Both the position numbers and the translations under genes were made by a program. DNA of 62,273 bases, counting the filler. It is 11 parts of 11 records of this genome, joined end to end, with 100 filler letters (N's around TTAATTAATTAA, not from the genome) between each part and the next. Parts side by side here need not be neighbours in the genome. Positions count along the whole stretch, not along the records: positions 51,214 to 57,609 come from SRR20825010_4766; 10 more parts are not named here. One strand, 5' to 3'. The notes below the pieces were generated by a model, which saw only the letters and a program-made list of their open reading frames with translations, searched no databases and was not told the origin of the DNA. This document shows positions 4,544 to 57,709 of the stretch, in pieces. Within the stretch, counting starts at the first letter, position 1. Each line of letters starts with the position of its first letter.

Positions 4544-5569
4544 TCAGACCGCCGCCTCCGCCTTCACTCTGCCCTTGTGAAAAAGCAGACAGAGCAGGAT
4601 GACGGCACCGAGGCCAATGGCCACGGAAGACAGTGGATAAACCGGCGCCACGAACAAGGCCAACGCAATCAGACCGATATTCAGCGCCAGTATGGCAAGA
4701 CAGGCACCGGCATGACTGAAGCCCCGCTGTGTCGCCTGCTGGTAGAAATGCTGGCGGTGCGCCTCGAAAACATTTTCCCGCCGGAGCACGCGCCTGACCA
4801 GCGTGAAGGTCGCATCGAACAGGTAATATCCCGGTAACAACAAGACCGCCGCCCACCCCGAAAGCCCGCCGGAGGCCGCGCCCGTCTCCAGCAGCATCCA
4901 GCCCGCCAGAAAACCGAGCGGGATTGAGGCGACATCGCCGATGAAAATCTTCGAGGGCTGCCAGTTCCAGACCAGGAAACCGGCAATCGCCGCAACCATC
5001 GCCAGCGCCGGAAGCTGGATAGAAGCGCCGATGCCGCCGATCACAGTCAATCCGATCAGGCCGCTGCCTATACTGATCGTCTCGACCCCGGTGATCCCGT
5101 CAATGCCATCCATGAAGTTGAAAAGATTGACGAACCAGAGCCAGGCAAAGCCCGCAACCGGAAGCTCGACCCAGACCGGGATCAGACCGCCGGTGAAACC
5201 CGTGTCCGGGACCGTCACCATCAATCCGGCGGCAACAGCCAGCGCCTGCACCAGCAGCCGTAGCCGCGCCGGCAGGTTCTTCATATCGTCAATGAAGGAG
5301 AGCATGGCGAGGCCGGCGGTCAATCCGGCAATCAACAGAAACTTGCCATCAAGAGCGCCTTGCAGGGCCAACCAGCCGATCCAGCCGGCGAGCATCACCG
5401 TGACAACGGCAATCCCGCCGCCGCGCGGCTTCGGCACAACGTGGCTGCTGCGCTCGTTCGGAACATCGATCACGGCACGGCGCGTCAGCACAGTGATCAG
5501 CGCGCGCGTGCCAGCCAGAGACGCGACGAACAGAACACCGAAAAAAACAAGGGCTGTAAGCAGTTGCAT
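4544..5569 (-). CDS. MraY/WecA/WbpL-type initiating undecaprenyl-phosphate sugar-1-phosphate transferase
   Basis: DVPNERSSHVVPKPRGGGIA, FIDD, NLFNFMDGIDG, KIFIGD and AHRQHFYQ motifs; multiple TM helices. Confidence 0.92.
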   Translation of the reverse strand: MQLLTALVFFGVLFVASLAGTRALITVLTRRAVIDVPNERSSHVVPKPRGGGIAVVTVMLAGWIGWLALQGALDGKFLLIAGLTAGLAMLSFIDDMKNLPARLRLLVQALAVAAGLMVTVPDTGFTGGLIPVWVELPVAGFAWLWFVNLFNFMDGIDGITGVETISIGSGLIGLTVIGGIGASIQLPALAMVAAIAGFLVWNWQPSKIFIGDVASIPLGFLAGWMLLETGAASGGLSGWAAVLLLPGYYLFDATFTLVRRVLRRENVFEAHRQHFYQQATQRGFSHAGACLAILALNIGLIALALFVAPVYPLSSVAIGLGAVILLCLLFHKGRVKAEAAV

Positions 5570-5614
5570 GGGCGCTCTTATAGCGTTCCGCGGGCCAAAA
5601 GGGCCAGCCGATTG

Positions 5615-7237
5615 TCATCCGGCCGTCTTGGCGTCCTCGCGTTGCAGGGCCCAGCGGATCGTAACCTCTCCGGTCGCCCTGATATTGTCCAGCGGCTCAC
5701 GGATAACCAACTGCTCGCAACGCTGGAACTGGCCGCCCCGCCCGAAATAGACACTCTCGTTCAGGGCAAGCCCGCGATCGCAGCGCAGGCGCCAGCCGGA
5801 GCCGCTGCCAAGCCGGATCAAAGCGGCCGATCCGCTCTGGATGATGGAGGTGCGGACTTTCGGATGCAGGTGCAGGCGGATACAGGCTTCCTTCGGCAGG
5901 TCGCCGGGATCGCCTGTATAGACAAGCCGGTCCTCAACCCTGAGATCGTCCCCCGCATGGGACAGATAGACCCGGCGGAAATGCTTCAGGCCATGGGTCG
6001 GCAGATAACCGTCATGCTCCGCCTCGATCAGCATGTCACCATCGTTTTCAGAACGCTCAGACCGGACATGCGCCGGGCGGGTGCCGGTCAGGCCATCCAC
6101 CTCGATCTCGGCCGCGTTACGATCATCAACCACGAGGGTGGAATGCGCCGCCGTGGCCCGGAGCGCGCCATCCCATTTCGGATCTGCCGGGCTGGCGCCG
6201 CAATTCACGATCATCCGCTGCTTGCCGATGCTGAGCTCGAAAGACAACAGACCGGCATGCGCCGCGTGATCCGCCGAGGACGGCTTGCCGGTATCCATGA
6301 TCAGACAGGTCCGCCCGGCAACCAGTCTCTCGAATCCGCTATCCGGGGCCGAGGCCAGTGATTTCCGCTTGGTTTCCGCCTGCGCGATCAGGCTGTCGAT
6401 GAACCAGACCTCGCCTTCTGTCGCATGATTGAACAAAGCCAGGCCGCCATCGCCATGGCGCAACAGCCGGAGCATCGCCGTCATCATGGAAATGCGCTCG
6501 TCCAGAGCCTCGTCGGCATGTCCGGCCAGACGCAGCGCTTTCCTGATCTCGACCAGATCGGCGAGTACGGAGACCTGCATGGCGGGCGAACGGGAAACAT
6601 GGCCGCCATCGGCAGCGACCTGACGGTCGAGCTCACGATGCAGCCATTGCAGGGCCTGATCGAACTTGCCGGAGCCTTCGCCGATCACTGCCATGGCCGC
6701 GAACAGGCCCTTGGCCGCCAGCAGGCGCCGGGCGCCCGGCGCCGAGGCCTCGATATCGCCGACCAGATGTCTGTATTGGCGGCCAATGGACTGGAAGAAA
6801 TCGGCACGGAACTCGTCGTCCGCCGAACCGCCGAAAAAGTCGTAATTTCCGATCCAGGAAGACAGCCGCGCGCCGAGAATATCAGGGCGCCACAACAGTG
6901 CATCCCATTCGTCATGCCGGGCCAGCCAGCCATCGACCAGATCGCGGGCGCGCAGCCGGGCCGCCTCGCCGCCAAGATCGCGCAAATCGCGCAGCCAGCA
7001 AAAGCCGTGCAGATGTTCCAGCGCGCCGGGCTCTCCCGGCTCCTTGATCCACGGGTCCGCTTCAAGGGTAAAGCTGCCGTTCGCATAAGACATGCGCCCG
7101 TCCAGGATCGCACGCCCTATCGAGGTGTCCCCCGGCAGATCGTCCGATAGCCGGTCATTGAGTCCGAGCAATGGCTTCGCCGCAAGGCGCCAGCGATAAA
7201 CCGGCGAGGCGAAATAGAGCTCCTTTAATGTCCGCAT
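5615..7237 (-). CDS. Heparinase II/III family protein
   Basis: LHGFCWLRDL, DGGHVSRSP, RHGDGGLALFN, AHAGLLSFELS, RATAAHST and EHDGY motifs. Confidence 0.85.
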   Translation of the reverse strand: MRTLKELYFASPVYRWRLAAKPLLGLNDRLSDDLPGDTSIGRAILDGRMSYANGSFTLEADPWIKEPGEPGALEHLHGFCWLRDLRDLGGEAARLRARDLVDGWLARHDEWDALLWRPDILGARLSSWIGNYDFFGGSADDEFRADFFQSIGRQYRHLVGDIEASAPGARRLLAAKGLFAAMAVIGEGSGKFDQALQWLHRELDRQVAADGGHVSRSPAMQVSVLADLVEIRKALRLAGHADEALDERISMMTAMLRLLRHGDGGLALFNHATEGEVWFIDSLIAQAETKRKSLASAPDSGFERLVAGRTCLIMDTGKPSSADHAAHAGLLSFELSIGKQRMIVNCGASPADPKWDGALRATAAHSTLVVDDRNAAEIEVDGLTGTRPAHVRSERSENDGDMLIEAEHDGYLPTHGLKHFRRVYLSHAGDDLRVEDRLVYTGDPGDLPKEACIRLHLHPKVRTSIIQSGSAALIRLGSGSGWRLRCDRGLALNESVYFGRGGQFQRCEQLVIREPLDNIRATGEVTIRWALQREDAKTAG

Positions 7238-7264
7238 GCCCGCCCCCAAAGGCTCAGCAGAAAC

Positions 7265-7503
7265 TCACTTTTCACCGCGAATGGCCGCTATATTCGCGGC
7301 ATAGGAATCCGGCCCGCCCCTGAAGACAGCGGTCCCGGCAACCAGCACGTCGGCACCGGCGGAAATACAGCCCGGCGCCGTCTCGATCGTCACCCCGCCA
7401 TCGACCTCGAGGTCGATGGTCCGGCCCGTGGCGTCGATCTTTTTCCGCACCGCCTCGATTTTGCGCAACTGGCTGTCGATGAATTTCTGCCCGCCAAAGC
7501 CGG
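7265..7503 (-). CDS. rpe: Ribulose-phosphate 3-epimerase, C-terminal fragment
   Basis: GFGGQKFIDSQLRKI...LEVDGGV...AGADVLVAGTAVF; cut by the contig edge. Confidence 0.93.
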
Positions 7504-7603
7504 NNNNNNNNNNNNNNNNNNNNNNNNNNNNNNNNNNNNNNNNNNNNTTAATTAATTAANNNNNNNNNNNNNNNNNNNNNNNNNNNNNNNNNNNNNNNNN
7601 NNN
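7504..7603. other. Synthetic contig spacer. Others lie at 11429-11528, 14881-14980, 25696-25795, 29559-29658, 35203-35302, 39839-39938, 44822-44921, 51114-51213 and 57610-57709.
   Basis: Identical 100-bp blocks of Ns around TTAATTAATTAA (stops in all six frames). Genes are truncated on both sides. Confidence 0.99.
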
Positions 7604-7744
7604 TCATGCAATGATGACAAAAGATGGTTTGAGTGCAAGTGTTTTTAAGCGCAACTCAGGGTTTAGCAAAATTAGACACACATGCATCAAGGATGCCGGG
7701 CCGCTGACTTTTGAGAGCAGGCCTTCGATTAAAGGAATAGAATC

Positions 7745-7954
7745 ATGGTCGCGATCACCAAAGAAGCCGGCGTATTTGTCACCCCTGCGCGCAATGACAA
7801 CACCATCAATCTGATGGATTTGCCACGTGCATGGCTCAAACGCCACGGCCTGCGCCAGAAACTGGCCCAGATGGATAGCCGCATGCTGCGCGATATTGGC
7901 TGGAACGTTTACGACGCCAAACGCGAAGCGGCCAAACCATTCTGGAAAGCCTGA
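7745..7954 (+). CDS. DUF1127 family small protein
   Basis: WLKRHGLRQKLAQMDSRMLRDIG...EAAKPFWKA matches the DUF1127 signature; AAGGA RBS upstream. Confidence 0.9.
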   Translation: MVAITKEAGVFVTPARNDNTINLMDLPRAWLKRHGLRQKLAQMDSRMLRDIGWNVYDAKREAAKPFWKA

Positions 7955-8010
7955 GACCGAAACGAAACGACGCCTAAAACCGCGCATTTGCGCATAACCG
8001 AGTAAAATTC

Positions 8011-8112
8011 ATGCAGAACAATGTCTCCCCGCTGCAGGGCGCAATCACCTTCCCGCTACAGGTTTTGATTGAAGCCCTGATGGACGCCTGGAAAGGCCTC
8101 CGCCTTAAGTAA
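8011..8112 (+). CDS. Possible 33-aa small protein MQNNVSPLQGAITFPLQVLIEALMDAWKGLRLK
   Basis: ATG-to-TAA ORF between the DUF1127 gene and the hairpin cluster; RBS is weak. Confidence 0.35.
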   Translation: MQNNVSPLQGAITFPLQVLIEALMDAWKGLRLK

Positions 8113-8119
8113 GGCTCGG

Positions 8120-8217
8120 GAACGTTCAATCCTCCCTGAACGCAGATCCAACATCCCCCCGTTGGAAGATGCGTATATAAATGCTGGTCACTCCCCTGGT
8201 GACCGGCATTTCTTTTA
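8120..8217 (+). ncRNA. Candidate cuckoo/CcsR-like sRNA: three hairpins with C-rich loops ending in a terminator
   Basis: CGTTCA-atcctccc-TGAACG (8123-8142), TCCAAC-atcccccc-GTTGGA (8147-8166) and AAATGCTGGTCAC-tcccctg-GTGACCGGCATTT (8179-8211), followed by CTTTT. Confidence 0.6.
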
Positions 8218-8302
8218 TCCGGCTTTATTCCCGAACCGTCCCAAACTCCCCGAACCCACACCACAACAGCGCGGATCGGCAAAGCAGGCCAGTCGCGCCA
8301 GA

Positions 8303-9571
8303 TTATTTTTTGTCGGGGAACCGCAGATACATCAGGTTTGCGGCATTCAAAACCGAATACATCACGGCGAATTGCGCATTGAACTCGAACTTTTCCGGCA
8401 TTGGCTGAAACAGTTCGTAAATCTGGCGGATGGATCGTTTGCCATCGATCCGTGACAGGATCGCAGGTGATGCCGATGGCATGGTCCGGGTCACCGACAG
8501 GCCGGTAAAGGTGATTTTGATATTGCCGGTTTTGGCAACGGATCTGGCCAAGGCCGCACCATCCACCCGGGTGAAGAACGGAATTGCGTCTTCGGCCGGG
8601 ACCGGTGGTTTGGTCTTGTTCTTGGCCTTCACCACATAAAATGTGTGCTTGGTAATATTGCCTGCCATCAGTTCGGCAAGGGCAGCACGTTCGCGGAACG
8701 GCACATGGACGGCCTTTTCCAACACATCATGGCGCGAACAATAGGTTGTCGGGTCATAGCGCATCGGTTCGATAAAGCTTTGCAGGCGCAAGCCCGCCTG
8801 ATGCACAAAATCAAAGACTTCATCAACGCGGTAAGCCCGGTCTTGCTGATGCAAAAGCAAGTCATAAAACCCGGCATCGCCGCCGTGGATATGATCGCCG
8901 ACAAACGGGTTGCGTTTCAGCCAGTTGGTTCCGGGCAGCGAATTAAACAGCGCCTTGCCGAAATTCAGGCGCCTTGCGCCACCGGCCTCGGCATTGAGCC
9001 GGTCCATCATTTCCTGCATATGATAGACGCCCTGGCGCCCAAGCTCGCCATACACCATAAGCCCCATGCCGCCATTGGGCTTCAGGGAGTCGGCCAGTGT
9101 CCGCAACCCTTCGTTCGGGTCGGGCAAATGGTGAAGCACCCCGCAGCAGTCAATATAGTCAAACGGGCCATATTCCTTGGCCAGATCGACAAAAGATCCG
9201 GTCACGAATGTAACGTTCTTTTCAAGATTACGGCGTTTGATCCGGGCTTCGGCAATAGCGCGGGCGTTTTCCGACAGATCGATATAGACGATTTCGGCCT
9301 TGGCTTTGCGATCCCGGGCCTGCTGAGCCAGCATCACCAGCGCATCACCGGTCCCGCCGCCGGCGACAAGAATTTTGATTTTGCCTTTGGCCGATGGGTC
9401 GCGCCCGCCAAAGACATAATGAACGACTTCTTCCCAGTTGCCGGGGGATCCGCTGACCAGTCTTTTATCCTCATCCTCCGGGTTTCGCGCCGGATAGGGA
9501 TATGTTTCATACTGATCACGCGTCTTGTTTGACGATTGCACAGTATCAGGCTGATTTTTGTCGTCGGACAT
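8303..9571 (-). CDS. Class I SAM-dependent methyltransferase
   Basis: QYETYPYP, ILVAGGGTGD (SAM motif I) and FDYIDCCGVLHHLPDP. Confidence 0.85.
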   Translation of the reverse strand: MSDDKNQPDTVQSSNKTRDQYETYPYPARNPEDEDKRLVSGSPGNWEEVVHYVFGGRDPSAKGKIKILVAGGGTGDALVMLAQQARDRKAKAEIVYIDLSENARAIAEARIKRRNLEKNVTFVTGSFVDLAKEYGPFDYIDCCGVLHHLPDPNEGLRTLADSLKPNGGMGLMVYGELGRQGVYHMQEMMDRLNAEAGGARRLNFGKALFNSLPGTNWLKRNPFVGDHIHGGDAGFYDLLLHQQDRAYRVDEVFDFVHQAGLRLQSFIEPMRYDPTTYCSRHDVLEKAVHVPFRERAALAELMAGNITKHTFYVVKAKNKTKPPVPAEDAIPFFTRVDGAALARSVAKTGNIKITFTGLSVTRTMPSASPAILSRIDGKRSIRQIYELFQPMPEKFEFNAQFAVMYSVLNAANLMYLRFPDKK

Positions 9572-51113: not shown

Positions 51114-51318
51114 NNNNNNNNNNNNNNNNNNNNNNNNNNNNNNNNNNNNNNNNNNNNTTAATTAATTAANNNNNNNNNNNNNNNNNNNNNNNNNNNNNNN
51201 NNNNNNNNNNNNNGGGCAATGCGGCCGGCCACTTCCCACAGCATCATCCTTTGTCACCCAAGACTTTTCCGCAAAAGATGCGCTTCAATGAGCAATTGGG
51301 TGCCAATCCGGTAGAGAT

Positions 51319-54316: not shown

Positions 54317-55234
54317 ATCGAACTGAGGCATCTTCGCTACTTCGTCGCTCTCGCTGAGGAACTCCACTTTGCGCGCGCAGCGGAGCGACTGAACATCGCG
54401 CCTCCGACCCTCACCGTGCAGATCCAGGAGATCGAACGAAGCCTGGCTGTACGTCTGTTTCTCCGAACGAAGCGTTCCGTGACACTGACACCATCAGGTG
54501 AGATTTTTCTGACCGAGGCTCGAAACGTCCTCGAACAGTATTCGAGAGCGGAAAGTGTTGGCCGGCGAGCTGGACGCGGTGAGATAGGGCGAGTGGAGAT
54601 CGGCTATGTCGGATCAGCCGCGTACGCTGGTGTTCTACAGCATCAAATGAGCACTTTTTCGGAAAGCTGGCCGAGCGTCCACCTCAATGCTCGTGAGTTT
54701 CCTATGGACGAGTTACCTCAACTGATTGTCAATGGGACCATTGATGTCGGTTTTGTACGCTTGCCAATTTCGATGCCCCGGTCGCTCCGGGTCCACACTC
54801 TTCTAAGAGACTACTTCTGTCTCGCTACGCCTTCTCGCCTCTATCGCGACATCAAGGACACCGTCCGCGCGACCAGGTTGTCTGAGGCTTCATTTATTAC
54901 TCCTGAGCAGGAAGCAGGCACCTATGCTATCGCGAAGCGCGGGCGTTTCAACCCGGACATCATCGCCTCACCTGGCAGCCTGCTAGCCGTCCTTACCCAT
55001 GTTTCCCTGGGTGCAGGGGTGGCGGTCATCCCAAGCGTGGTGCGCAATGTTGTGTCCCTACCTGGAGTTACATTCCATCGCATTGCCGGAGAACCAATTT
55101 TTTCGGAAGTCGCGGCCGTTTTTCGTACGGGCGAAAGCTCCCCAACAGTGAAGCATTTCGTGCAGCAAATCCAAAGCACACCGTCGCATCAGATCAGCCC
55201 ACTTGACTGGAACCGGCCCTTTCCTCCGGCATGA
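54317..55234 (+). CDS. LysR-family regulator with a non-canonical or mutated start codon
   Basis: The frame reads (ATC)ELRHLRYFVALAEELHFARAAERLNIAPPTLTVQIQ from 54317, with GGAG 7 nt upstream. There is an in-frame stop at 54287 and no ATG/GTG/TTG before the HTH. Confidence 0.88.
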   Translation: MELRHLRYFVALAEELHFARAAERLNIAPPTLTVQIQEIERSLAVRLFLRTKRSVTLTPSGEIFLTEARNVLEQYSRAESVGRRAGRGEIGRVEIGYVGSAAYAGVLQHQMSTFSESWPSVHLNAREFPMDELPQLIVNGTIDVGFVRLPISMPRSLRVHTLLRDYFCLATPSRLYRDIKDTVRATRLSEASFITPEQEAGTYAIAKRGRFNPDIIASPGSLLAVLTHVSLGAGVAVIPSVVRNVVSLPGVTFHRIAGEPIFSEVAAVFRTGESSPTVKHFVQQIQSTPSHQISPLDWNRPFPPA

Positions 55235-55618
55235 CGGCGGCCGAGACGGTATGACCTAAGCAAAACTGCTTGTGATCTCTCGATCCAGCCTCGGCGAAGC
55301 AGAGACCGCCGCTGCCATGAATCGTAGCAGCAGCCGAGATGATCCGATCGTCTGATCTTGAGCTAGAGGCCGCTCTCGGCTATAATGGGGCATAAAGATA
55401 AGGCTGGAGCGTTGTCGTGTGCACGACGACACTCATTATCCCTGTGAGCCTGTAGCTGCACTTTTCGCGCCAGTATTTGCGCGACGCTACGCTACGCAGG
55501 AATACGTCATTGCCCGATATATCAGCCATTTCAAGGTCGTTCACCGCCGTCTGCTTCTCTGTAACCAGGGAGGTTTCCGCGTCATTGTCGTTCTGTGACC
55601 AGCAGGACGAGCACAAAT

Positions 55619-55804
55619 ATGGCACGGGATACCAAGACCAGGCGGAAGGAGCAGAAGGAGTTCGGTCAGCCCGAACTCACCCTGCTACGCGCTGGCACTG
55701 GCACAGATCCGCGCCTGGTCGAAATGGTTCGCCTTCTCGCCCGTCGTGCTGCAACCGAACTATACGAGCAGGAGCGGAAGAAACGCCGGACAGAGCGCTC
55801 CTGA
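55619..55804 (+). CDS. Small basic protein upstream of the serine recombinase
   Basis: MARDTKTRRKEQ...DPRLVEMVRLLARRAATELYEQ; AGGA upstream; ends 22 bp before the recombinase start. Confidence 0.6.
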   Translation: MARDTKTRRKEQKEFGQPELTLLRAGTGTDPRLVEMVRLLARRAATELYEQERKKRRTERS

Positions 55805-55826
55805 TCAACACTCAGGGGATTACATC

Positions 55827-57609
55827 GTGAAAGTCGCCGTTTACGCACGCTATTCGTCGGACAATCAGCGGGACGCATCCATCGCCGACCAGCTGCGCAT
55901 ATGTCGCCTTCATGCCGAAAAGCAGGGTTGGCATATCATCGAGGAATACACCGATCACGCTGTATCCGGCGCATCCCTGCTCCGCCCCGGCATTCAGGCA
56001 CTAATCTCTGATGCCAATCGCGGACGCTTCGATATCATCCTTGCCGAAGCAATGGACCGGCTGTCTCGGGATCAAGAGGACATAGCCGGCATCTTCAAAC
56101 GCATGACCTATTCGGACGTGAAGATCGTCACCCTTTCCGAGGGAGAGATCACCCACCTTCACGTTGGTCTCAAGGGCACAATGAACGCCCTCTTCCTGAA
56201 GGATTTGGCCGATAAGACAAGACGCGGACAACGCGGCCGCGTGGAAGCCGGCAAGTCCGGTGGCGGCAACTGCTACGGCTACGATGTCGTCAAGAAGTTT
56301 GACGGCAATGGTGAGCCAGTACGGGGGGACCGCACCATCAATGAAATCGAGGCTGGCATCATCCGAAGAATCTTCAGGGACTACAATACCGGTAAGTCCC
56401 CGAAACGCATTGCCGTCGAGCTAAACAAGGATGCCATCGCAGCGCCAGGTGGGGGGGATTGGGGCTTCAGCACCATCAATGGCAATGCCAAGCGCGGCAA
56501 CGGCATTCTCAACAACGAGATGTATATTGGTAAACTGGTCTGGAACCGCCAGCGGTTCATCAAGGACCCGGACACTGGCAAGCGTCAGGCGCGCCCGAAC
56601 CCTGAATCGGAATGGATTACACATGAGGTTCCAGAGCTTCGCATCCTCGACGAGGATCTATGGAACGGCGCAAAGAGCCGCCAAGCCGCTATCAAGTACA
56701 CACGAAGCGACAACGGGGAAAAGGAAAACCATTTCCGCGAACGCCGTCGTCCAAAATATCTGTTCTCTGGCCTGACGAAATGCGCCTGCTGCGGTGGCGG
56801 CTACTCGATGATTTCGGCAGATCTGGTTGGTTGCTCGACTGCCAGGAACAAAGGCACCTGTGACAACCGCAAGAACATTCGCCGCGATCGGCTCGAGGCG
56901 CGCGTCCTTAACTCTCTTCGCCACCACCTGATGGACCCGGCCCTGTTCACGGCGTTCTGTGACGAGTTCACTCGCGAGATGAACCGTCTTCGCATGGAAG
57001 GACGCGCATCGCTCGATGCCGCCGAGGCCGAGATCAAGAAAATCGACCGGGAGCTGGACACACTTCTGAACCTAATCCTGAAGGGCGGAGCCGCCGACCG
57101 ACTCAATGAGAAAATGGTCAGCCTTGAGCGCCGGAAAAAGGAAGTAGAGCAGTTTCTGGCAGAGGCCGATGAGCCTCCCCCCCTCCTGCACCCGAGCATG
57201 GCCACCTACTATCGGATTCAAGTGGCAGAGCTGTACGAAGCTCTGCAGGAAGAATCGGAGGCAAAGCGGATGACCGCGTCCGACATTATCCGGTCGCTGG
57301 TCCAAGAGATCATTCTCACGCCGGGAGAAGACGAGCTTCTGATTGACGTTCGTGGGGATCTGGCTGGCATCCTGGCCATATCCCTGAATACGAAAAAGCC
57401 CGCCACAAGGGCGGGCTCTTCACAATTTGAGATGGTTGCGGGGACCAGCTCTGATCTGAACTTGCGCCGGTCGCAAGTTGAAGTGGTTGCGGGAGCCTGC
57501 TCAAATCTCAAATTGCGAACGCAAAAAAGCCGCCCGGATGGGGCGGCTGGATCGCACGATCATGGATCGCAAGTTGAGATGGTTGCGGGGGCAGGATTTG
57601 AACCTGCGA
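55827..57609 (+). CDS. Large serine recombinase (integrase); the ORF is open to the contig edge
   Basis: VYARYSSDNQ catalytic Ser, DRLSRD, recombinase domain, LFSGLTKCACCG...C...C zinc ribbon and coiled coil. Confidence 0.95.
57393..57589 (+). repeat. Three 23-bp att-like direct repeats with inverted arms and two minus-strand terminators
   Basis: TCACAATTTGAGATGGTTGCGGG (57420), TCGCAAGTTGAAGTGGTTGCGGG (57471) and TCGCAAGTTGAGATGGTTGCGGG (57567). Hairpins preceded by A-tracts lie at 57393-57417 and 57523-57548. Confidence 0.85.
57580..57609 (-). tRNA. 3' end of tRNA-fMet (T-arm, acceptor strand, CCA), truncated; likely integration site
   Basis: The minus strand reads TCGCAGGTTCAAATCCTGCCCCCGCAACCA. 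The anticodon is not visible, so identity rests on recognising the sequence. Confidence 0.8.
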
Positions 57610-57709
57610 NNNNNNNNNNNNNNNNNNNNNNNNNNNNNNNNNNNNNNNNNNNNTTAATTAATTAANNNNNNNNNNNNNNNNNNNNNNNNNNNNNNNNNNN
57701 NNNNNNNNN

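Follow-up and report, generated by a model that had tools for sequence, protein, structure and literature searches.

An apparently ordered set of attP-type sites matched to tRNA-fMet alleles in the 3′ end of an alphaproteobacterial large serine integrase gene

We have analysed a 62,273-nt stretch of DNA (the window, made up of 11 contigs of about 3–10 kb) and focus here on the right end of its contig at 51214–57609, where the gene of a large serine recombinase (LSR, here also called the integrase) runs through three attachment-like sites and into an antisense tRNA-fMet gene. Comparison with related loci makes it quite probable that these sites represent an ordered set of alternative attP sites, one for each tRNA-fMet allele, and no record of successive insertions. 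The locus itself is the integrase-proximal end of an integrative element of ~60–140 kb, probably a conjugative or mobilisable island, which occupies the tRNA-fMet gene at the end of an rRNA operon. A sequence-only reading made before this analysis had described a stack of in-frame, attP-like palindromes of about 48 bp in the 3′ end of an LSR gene, ending in tRNA-fMet, and this description is supported by the work reported below. It should be noted that the ten spacers between the contigs (7504–57709) each consist of N44–TTAATTAATTAA–N44, and since the window was joined from separate contigs, any open reading frame (ORF) or gene synteny which crosses a spacer is artificial.

The integrase has the domain order of an LSR, with an N-terminal Resolvase domain (PF00239, residues 3–143, E 1.1e-23) followed by Recombinase (PF07508, residues 174–285) and zinc-ribbon (Zn_ribbon_recom PF13408, residues 312–365) domains, all identified with Pfam. 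The translated N-terminus contains ...VYARYSSDNQ, and the nucleophile serine is presumably found in this part of the protein. The absence of a stop codon had been presented as a feature of the gene, and we find instead that the ORF is open because the contig ends at 57609, with the stop given in the ORF list at 57665 falling inside the artificial spacer. In homologs the ORF closes with ...FEPxTFRL and a TGA in the tRNA anticodon loop, about ten codons past the end of the window's contig. Amongst the 120 best homologs (69–100% identical, with those that are named being alphaproteobacterial), 99 stop at this TGA and have the tail ...VAGxGFEPxTFRL, a tRNA-antisense peptide encoded by the antisense of the acceptor strand, T-arm and anticodon stem.

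Within the 3′ part of the integrase gene a 24-bp repeat begins at 57420, 57471 and 57567, with two, three and zero mismatches to the third copy, respectively, and no match of this kind was obtained in any of 100 shuffled sequences. The motif TGGTTGCGGG occurs exactly three times in the window, which contains no further copy. The spacings of 51 and 96 bp and the in-frame peptides SQFEMVAG, SQVEVVAG and SQVEMVAG all agree with what had been predicted from the sequence, with the repeat now taken as 24 bp. The palindromes of about 48 bp proposed for copies 1 and 2 are likewise borne out by inverted repeats: the arms of site 2 at 57468–57481 and 57508–57521 are 86% complementary, and complementarity to the left arm of site 3 is 92–93% for the right arms of the first two sites (the coordinates of these and other features are listed in Table 1).

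Table 1. Features at the right end of the contig at 51214–57609, with positions counted along the whole window.
Feature	Position	Strand	Description
69-codon ORF	55595–55804	+	Basic; ends 23 nt before the integrase start; no Pfam family
Large serine recombinase (integrase) ORF	55827–57609	+	GTG start; open at the contig end; assigned from Pfam domains and homolog ends
Terminator-like hairpin 1	57394–57420	−	Inside the integrase ORF, where it encodes KKPATRAG; 11-nt arms 91% complementary
Site 1	57420–57467		attP-type palindrome; left arm 57420–57443, right arm 57444–57467; centre GA 57443–57444
Site 2	57471–57518		attP-type palindrome; left arm 57471–57494, right arm 57495–57518; centre AG 57494–57495
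Terminator 2	57522–57548	−	Hairpin 57528–57548 plus U tract; in the 48-bp spacer of the 96-bp unit
Site 3, junction in use (attR)	57567–57609		Element left arm 57567–57590; centre GG 57590–57591; host half-site (tRNA T-arm) 57591–57609
tRNA-fMet 3′ part	57580–57609	−	CCA end, acceptor strand and T-arm; truncated where the contig stops
Artificial contig spacer	57610–57709		N44, TTAATTAATTAA, N44; non-biological

The anatomy of the sites becomes apparent when arms from many loci are compared. In site 1 the outer CGCAAGT is equidistant from the centre in both arms, and the left-arm consensus tCGCAAgTtgAGaTGGTTGCGGGg (110 arms, of which 45 are distinct) and the reversed right arms (42 arms, 29 distinct) likewise agree in how far CGCAAGT lies from the centre. 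In the tRNA-side arm (67 arms) TCGCAGGT lies 5 bp nearer the centre, as does the TCGCA motif in site 3. Short, near-symmetric att sites with an offset of the outer motif between attP and attB are characteristic of LSRs, and this is the arrangement found here; the outer motif of LSR attB half-sites is reported to lie 4–5 bp nearer the centre than in attP (bioRxiv preprint 10.1101/2025.01.03.631226). The centre of symmetry is the point at which the acceptor-strand complement ends and the T-stem begins, and homolog tails diverge exactly at this centre. On the basis of this arm anatomy we therefore regard sites 1 and 2 as complete attP-type sites and site 3 as an attR. The left arm supplies the last 11 nt of the tRNA (the 3′ acceptor strand with the CCA end) together with the trailer, and the repeat shared by the two ends of the element is about 11–18 nt long.

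We examined 161 sources for further sites (the window plus 80 genome loci and 80 metagenome loci) and found arrays of two or three sites in 26 of the 81 comprising the window and the genome loci, and in 20 of the 80 metagenome loci. In none of these 46 arrays is a central dinucleotide repeated. The window's own array reads GA, AG and GG, and its lineage has the orders GA-AG-GG or GA-GG; the Paracoccus/Sphingomonas lineage has GG-GA-AG, GG-GA or GG-AG, and a third lineage (57–62% identical) has AG-GG, AG-GA or GA-GG, with site order kept across genera and orders. All site offsets are in the integrase frame and the units are 51, 60 or 96 bp long, which extends to the homologs the in-frame spacing first pointed out in the window. 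Before arrays were counted, motif hits with two mismatches that fell in the terminator hairpin or flanks (offsets 55, 133, 266 and 290–301) were removed, and the loci left out were those with no anchor motif (L079, L208, L254 and L262), with a contig that was too short (L213 and L266), or with a partial match (L251).

The number of sites at the junction with the tRNA is between one and three and varies with the host allele. When the junctions were compared with 53 full tRNA genes, the dinucleotide was found to co-vary with host-side tRNA bases that are not supplied by the element: a GG junction is accompanied by G7–C66 and G49–C65 (36 genes), a GA junction by A49–U65 (12 genes), and an AG junction by A7–U66 (four genes) or G7–U66 (one gene). 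Judged from these sequences, the tRNA is in every case joined to a site that fits the host's tRNA-fMet allele, with compensating changes at positions 7 and 49, and it follows from this co-variation that the number of sites at the integrase end is the rank of the host-fitting site in the array. The same integrase can be found joined at different sites: the cores of L015 and L025 are 100% identical, and of this pair one has its second site next to a GG tRNA and the other its first site next to a GA tRNA. Similarly, a member of the Rhodobacterales with one site in a GG host (L035) and a member of the Sphingomonadales with two sites in a GA host (L032) have cores that are 97.9% identical.

If the array is part of the excised element and the matching site is the one used, then any sites beyond it must lie at the other end of the inserted element. 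We scanned 15 genomes for the motif, and in 11 of them found a partner site on the same strand and contig, at a distance of 59–136 kb, whose dinucleotide equals that of the junction; in each of the five genomes for which distal sites were expected, these follow directly after the partner. In Paracoccus versutus (G008) and Salipiger (G010), GG is found at the integrase end and GG-GA-AG in 51-bp steps at the far end. Sphingomonas (G006) has GG-GA at the integrase end and GA-AG at the far end, Xanthobacter (G011) has GA and then GA-GG 96 bp apart, and Dongia (G013) has GA-AG and then AG-GG. Where the whole array is at the integrase end there is a single site at the far end (G001, G002, G003, G009, G012 and G015). 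Right arms at the far end are mirror images of the left arm (e.g. GCACGCAACCATCTCAAATTGC), and junction and far-end site have a dinucleotide in common in 11 of 11 paired genomes, with the position of the cut itself placed by symmetry. A search for tRNA-like sequence inside the far ends with ARAGORN covered 12 loci and found none in 11 of them, the remaining one giving an unrelated tRNA-Arg, and Rfam gave no match there at E up to 0.1 in the six loci searched.

These observations can be brought together in a simple mechanism. According to the same preprint (10.1101/2025.01.03.631226), religation by LSRs needs attP and attB to have matching 2-bp central dinucleotides. Alphaproteobacterial tRNA-fMet occurs as three alleles at positions 66 and 65, exactly the positions of the central dinucleotide, and under the religation rule the excised element would therefore offer one matched attP per allele. 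Provided that the central dinucleotide is the crossover, a mismatch would exclude the other sites and the element would integrate via the site which matches the host. Sites upstream of the one used stay at the integrase end, leaving an ORF one, two or three units long, and sites downstream move with the element to the far end, a splitting of the array which the comparison shows; the purpose of carrying several sites would then be host range. In the window, a GG-type tRNA has been entered by way of the third site (GG).

The window's element was also followed in other samples by comparing contigs from four runs, in which there were no listed joints or indels and the information came from loose ends alone. 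With 100% identity over 94% of the query, protein P0002 shows the tRNA peptide attached at site 2. A contig from run X1 (two differences over 55200–57496) shows site 2, with its A kept, continuing into the tRNA T-arm, and a second X1 contig contains a terminator-like hairpin, a short trailer unlike any P arm, the right arm of site 2, terminator 2 and site 3. The latter is the expected reciprocal end, with its last 18 nt ambiguous in the metagenome graph. A contig from an unrelated metagenome run, X2, is identical to the window over 57433–57593, and in it site 3 continues into a mirror-image right arm, a junction which is either an attP or a tandem form. This match without any difference, and the presence of the three-site layout in other genera, answer the concern that the repeats might have been produced by assembly at a contig end. 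In the likely source run (X18) contigs span all three repeats, and there are also tRNA copies with other trailers. We note separately that a low-depth X2 contig has site 1 joined to unrelated sequence, which is unexplained.

A number of points weigh against an ordered set of allele-matched attP sites. The evidence is comparative throughout, the central dinucleotide is placed by symmetry and not by a mapped cut, and as the loci are related by descent, our counts overstate the number of independent events. Many elements have a single site, and an array is hence not required. No far-end partner on the same contig was found in 4 of the 15 genomes (G004, G005, G007 and G014), with G014 having a fitting partner on another contig, and the assignment of far ends presumes a single element between the two ends when tandem elements occur at this tRNA. 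In G005 a lone AG site (L119, on contig C1), which includes a right arm and leads to an ...LFRAAA tail, lies ~86 kb from the L039 integrase; the occupied tRNA in this genome is GG-type and no sites were found beside the lone AG site, which is unexplained. Finally, a contig from run X4 joins a site-2 left arm (window 57484–57493) to a GG-type tRNA with a central G and not A. The simple dinucleotide rule does not account for this junction, which needs a variant element or some other route, for instance a homologous exchange of site 2 with site 3.

The sequence-only reading had taken the array to be an accreted record of successive recombination events, which might also provide alternative excision points or decoy sites. 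Put explicitly, successive related elements inserted at a regenerated tRNA would have lost their interiors and left mini-cassettes of a right arm plus a left arm as scars. There are observations which fit such a history, as tandem elements are found at this tRNA, a second recombinase family lies beside the far end (L081 and L184), a single contig of Brucella sp. holds the motif five times on one strand, the internal right arms are like genuine far-end right arms, and the 96-bp unit resembles a right arm joined to a terminator plus left arm. However, insertions into one host would share a dinucleotide and none of the 46 arrays repeats one, so this reading is not supported; furthermore, the order of sites holds across genera and orders, the array is split exactly at the matching site with its distal part at the far end of the element, and there are few unit lengths (51, 60 and 96 bp), all in frame. 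We regard scars of accretion as an improbable explanation, and accretion in different hosts may nevertheless have been how the arrays first arose. The sites are read here as alternative integration sites in place of alternative excision points, and no support was found for a decoy role.

Slightly less probable again is a regulatory or architectural array, in which the additional units would be accessory (res-like) integrase-binding sites, decoys, or terminators kept against rRNA read-through. The site count at the integrase end is not constant, as might be expected from such an array, but tracks the host allele, and the internal sites are the active junction in other hosts. It is true that three dimer-sized sites lie side by side and adjoin the crossover site, and that with the 96-bp unit comes a second strong terminator, directed towards the rrn operon, yet the 51-bp units have no terminator. 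LSRs are not known to need accessory sites, and the res arrays of small resolvases consist of fixed subsites that are required together, unlike the one to three sites found here in an array that is split by integration. There is next to no room for chance repeats or a contig-end assembly artefact, despite the array abutting the end of a contig beside a repeated rRNA operon, as this is refuted by the shuffled sequences, by the same layout in independent contigs from other studies, and by the arrays in many genomes.

Returning to the ordered set of alternative attP sites which we favour, the position of the sites within an ORF means that integration alters the integrase's C-terminus, with the integrated form ending ...FEPxTFRL and the far-end arms providing other tails. 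The earlier suggestion that the C-terminus changes with the site used, and that different sites are used, is supported. When the far ends are read in the integrase frame, 15 of 19 finish in ...AA, mostly as LFR(A/T)AA, at 17, 37, 45 or 48 codons past the last site. In ten variants of the last six codons, the second codon position is constant, the third differs in every case, and each of the three stop codons occurs, which on the sequences available is a coding pattern. Variation in the left arm among homologs falls at first and second codon positions between two conserved DNA motifs and has no third-position bias, and the left arm is therefore constrained as DNA. The excised integrase would end mostly in the conserved ...LFR(A/T)AA tail and the integrated form in the tRNA-antisense ...FEPATFRL, and the ORF, which stays open through every unit of the array, would be kept so because the excised integrase must reach the ...LFR(A/T)AA tail.

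Tails that end in ...AA are reminiscent of ssrA-type tags, and by this analogy the ...LFRAAA tail might be a protease or degradation tag which ties integrase stability to the state of integration, a suggestion that we make tentatively. Weighing against it are the non-AA endings of 4 of the 19 far ends and, within the metagenome set, of 6 among the 12 non-tRNA tails that are closed, as well as one right-arm class which gives ...IAV or ...VAI ends. Since integration rewrites the C-terminus, the enzyme would sense whether, and through which site, it has been integrated. The fuller proposal, that an orthogonal attP set, the choice of the host-fitting site and the rewriting of the C-terminus from a protease tag to a tRNA-antisense tail are combined in a widespread alphaproteobacterial element family, is possible and on balance doubtful.

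Hairpin terminators on the tRNA strand had been noted before sites 1 and 3, and both fold well, with the second alone listed in a terminator consensus scan. On the minus strand hairpin 1 folds with −20.4 kcal/mol (z −3.95) and is followed by a U run. The fold of 57515–57579, which includes terminator 2, is −27.1 kcal/mol (z −4.06), also on the minus strand and followed by a U run, and the scan gives terminator 2 eight pairs, seven of them G–C, and a T run. These hairpins, which lie within the ORF, would terminate the convergent tRNA/rrn transcript.

The third repeat copy had been seen to continue into real tRNA sequence, and it does so as the antisense of a tRNA 3′ end, with relatives showing the full tRNA-Met(CAT). 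ARAGORN found no tRNA at the site in the window because the gene is cut by the contig end. It identified a tRNA-Met(CAT) on the opposite strand directly after the recombinase gene in 54 of the 80 genome loci, and in six of these 54 loci tRNA-Ala and tRNA-Ile ~3.5 kb further on, neighbours which mark the target tRNA as the last gene of an rRNA operon in the relatives. The C1–A72 mismatch of initiator tRNAs is present in 53 of 53 full-length tRNA genes. The recombinase adjoining the tRNA is of the serine type, and the locus is accordingly not an island of the usual tyrosine-integrase kind, where a tyrosine recombinase adjoins the tRNA and the direct repeat of the tRNA 3′ part is long.

Other elements also make use of this tRNA. 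A second zinc-ribbon recombinase family (...GELGTILNW...) reads into the same tRNA 3′-end motif from its left flank (L081 688–1554, L113, L117 and L184) and is found in tandem with elements of the family studied here; at least two integrase families share this crossover point. In L027, L036, L068 and L071 (past the integrase stop), and also in L113 and L167, the integrase reads into a tRNA-fMet 3′ half which ends in the anticodon loop and is followed by unrelated DNA. These halved copies look like the footprint of another type of island in the anticodon loop, and the gene like a hot spot for multiple elements. In a further group (L066, L070, L186, L193, L229 and L263) non-palindromic sequence follows the integrase left arm, and from there the ORF continues antisense through a conserved stretch to end in ...E(D/Q)xxQLAA; these junctions may be secondary target sites or another type of attP partner.

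The 69-codon ORF upstream of the integrase is found at the same position in 62 of 80 related loci (tblastn), and we regard it as a conserved partner of the integrase gene; excision by LSRs calls for a separate directionality factor, and the ORF is a candidate for this role or for that of a regulator. The contig at 51214–57609 also has aminotransferase, MFS transporter and LysR-type genes (Pfam). In the LysR-type ORF at 54416–55234 the HTH_1 match starts only at profile position 32, and either the DNA-binding N-terminus is shortened or the real start is elsewhere. A tRNA-Leu(CAA) on the minus strand of another contig (window 12419–12503) is unrelated to the array. In L015 a SIR2-like gene lies beside a HerA-type ATPase gene just upstream of the integrase (5374–8762), a pair which looks like defence-system cargo, and SIR2, HerA-type, ParB-like and Toprim/DUF7146 genes are found upstream of a relative's integrase. 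Plasmid and chromid matches have 70–73% DNA identity, and the one region inspected was without annotated features. A prophage origin was considered and dropped because the best match to the integrase in the phage collection is only 37% identical; Paracoccus phage Pami6 is described as having a serine integrase at tRNA-Met (PMC6536676).

Several known systems share individual features with this one. The integrase has the same three-domain architecture as the LSRs of phiC31, Bxb1, SPbeta (SprA) and LI/A118, which resemble it further in having a near-symmetric attP of ~50 bp and a shorter attB half-site; in such LSRs a 2-bp centre must match for religation (10.1101/2025.01.03.631226), as is proposed here. 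Unlike in phiC31/Bxb1-type LSRs, the integrase ORF itself contains attP here, as many as three tandem attP sites with different dinucleotides are present, and the target is the border between the acceptor and T-stem of tRNA-fMet. The Ccr serine recombinases of SCCmec islands insert at the 3′ end of rlmH, regenerate their target, and allow tandem elements with several copies of the repeat. SCCmec repeats flank whole elements and have one core, whereas here adjacent complete sites with different cores belong to one element. The SSV-type integrases of archaeal viruses have attP in the integrase ORF and a tRNA target, and the gene is split by integration. These are tyrosine recombinases with a gene split into two large parts, whereas in our case only the last 13–80 codons are exchanged. 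In the mycobacteriophages BPs and Brujita, attP also lies in an ORF, and integration removes the C-terminal degradation tag of the viral form, according to PMC3694055. That ORF is a repressor and the integrase a tyrosine recombinase, in contrast to a serine integrase ORF here, for which a tag function may be suggested by analogy.

A parallel to the dinucleotide rule comes from engineering, where one integrase was used with several attP/attB pairs differing only in the overlap bases and without cross-reaction (Colloms et al., PMC3936721); those pairs were constructed, whereas this appears to be a natural array matched to the natural alleles of one host gene. The island of Brucella (Ochrobactrum) anthropi ATCC 49188, as reported in PMC13707694 (2026), has a recombinase gene and a tRNA-Met gene on opposite strands with an overlap of 40 nt, 18-nt direct repeats separated by 111 kb, and conjugation genes. 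This recombinase belongs to the same family (P0014, 78% identical). The island is treated there as an ordinary tRNA island, and the text examined makes no mention of several sites, palindromes or central dinucleotides. Our literature searches, which covered material other than the supplements of PMC13707694 and PMC8627217, brought up neither an account of this array nor one of multiple or tandem attP sites occurring naturally, and every match listed for 'two attP sites' was an engineered construct. What appears to be new is the multi-allelic attP array inside an LSR gene, large serine integrase systems themselves being known.

LSRs are usually viewed as acting on one attP and one attB, and here nature appears to use the engineers' trick of orthogonal dinucleotides. 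A tandem set of attP sites would let one element enter hosts in which the essential initiator tRNA differs at two paired bases, and would explain why near-identical islands are found in the Rhodobacterales, Sphingomonadales and Hyphomicrobiales (cores 97.9–100% identical). It also explains the length classes of 549–601 residues seen in annotations of these recombinases and their overlap with the tRNA gene. In the loci examined and in PMC13707694, the islands carry defence, conjugation and predicted resistance genes. The array provides an integrase with three natural orthogonal sites that can be put to the test, and if the C-terminal swap is functional, integration-dependent protein switching would extend from phage repressors to a serine integrase.

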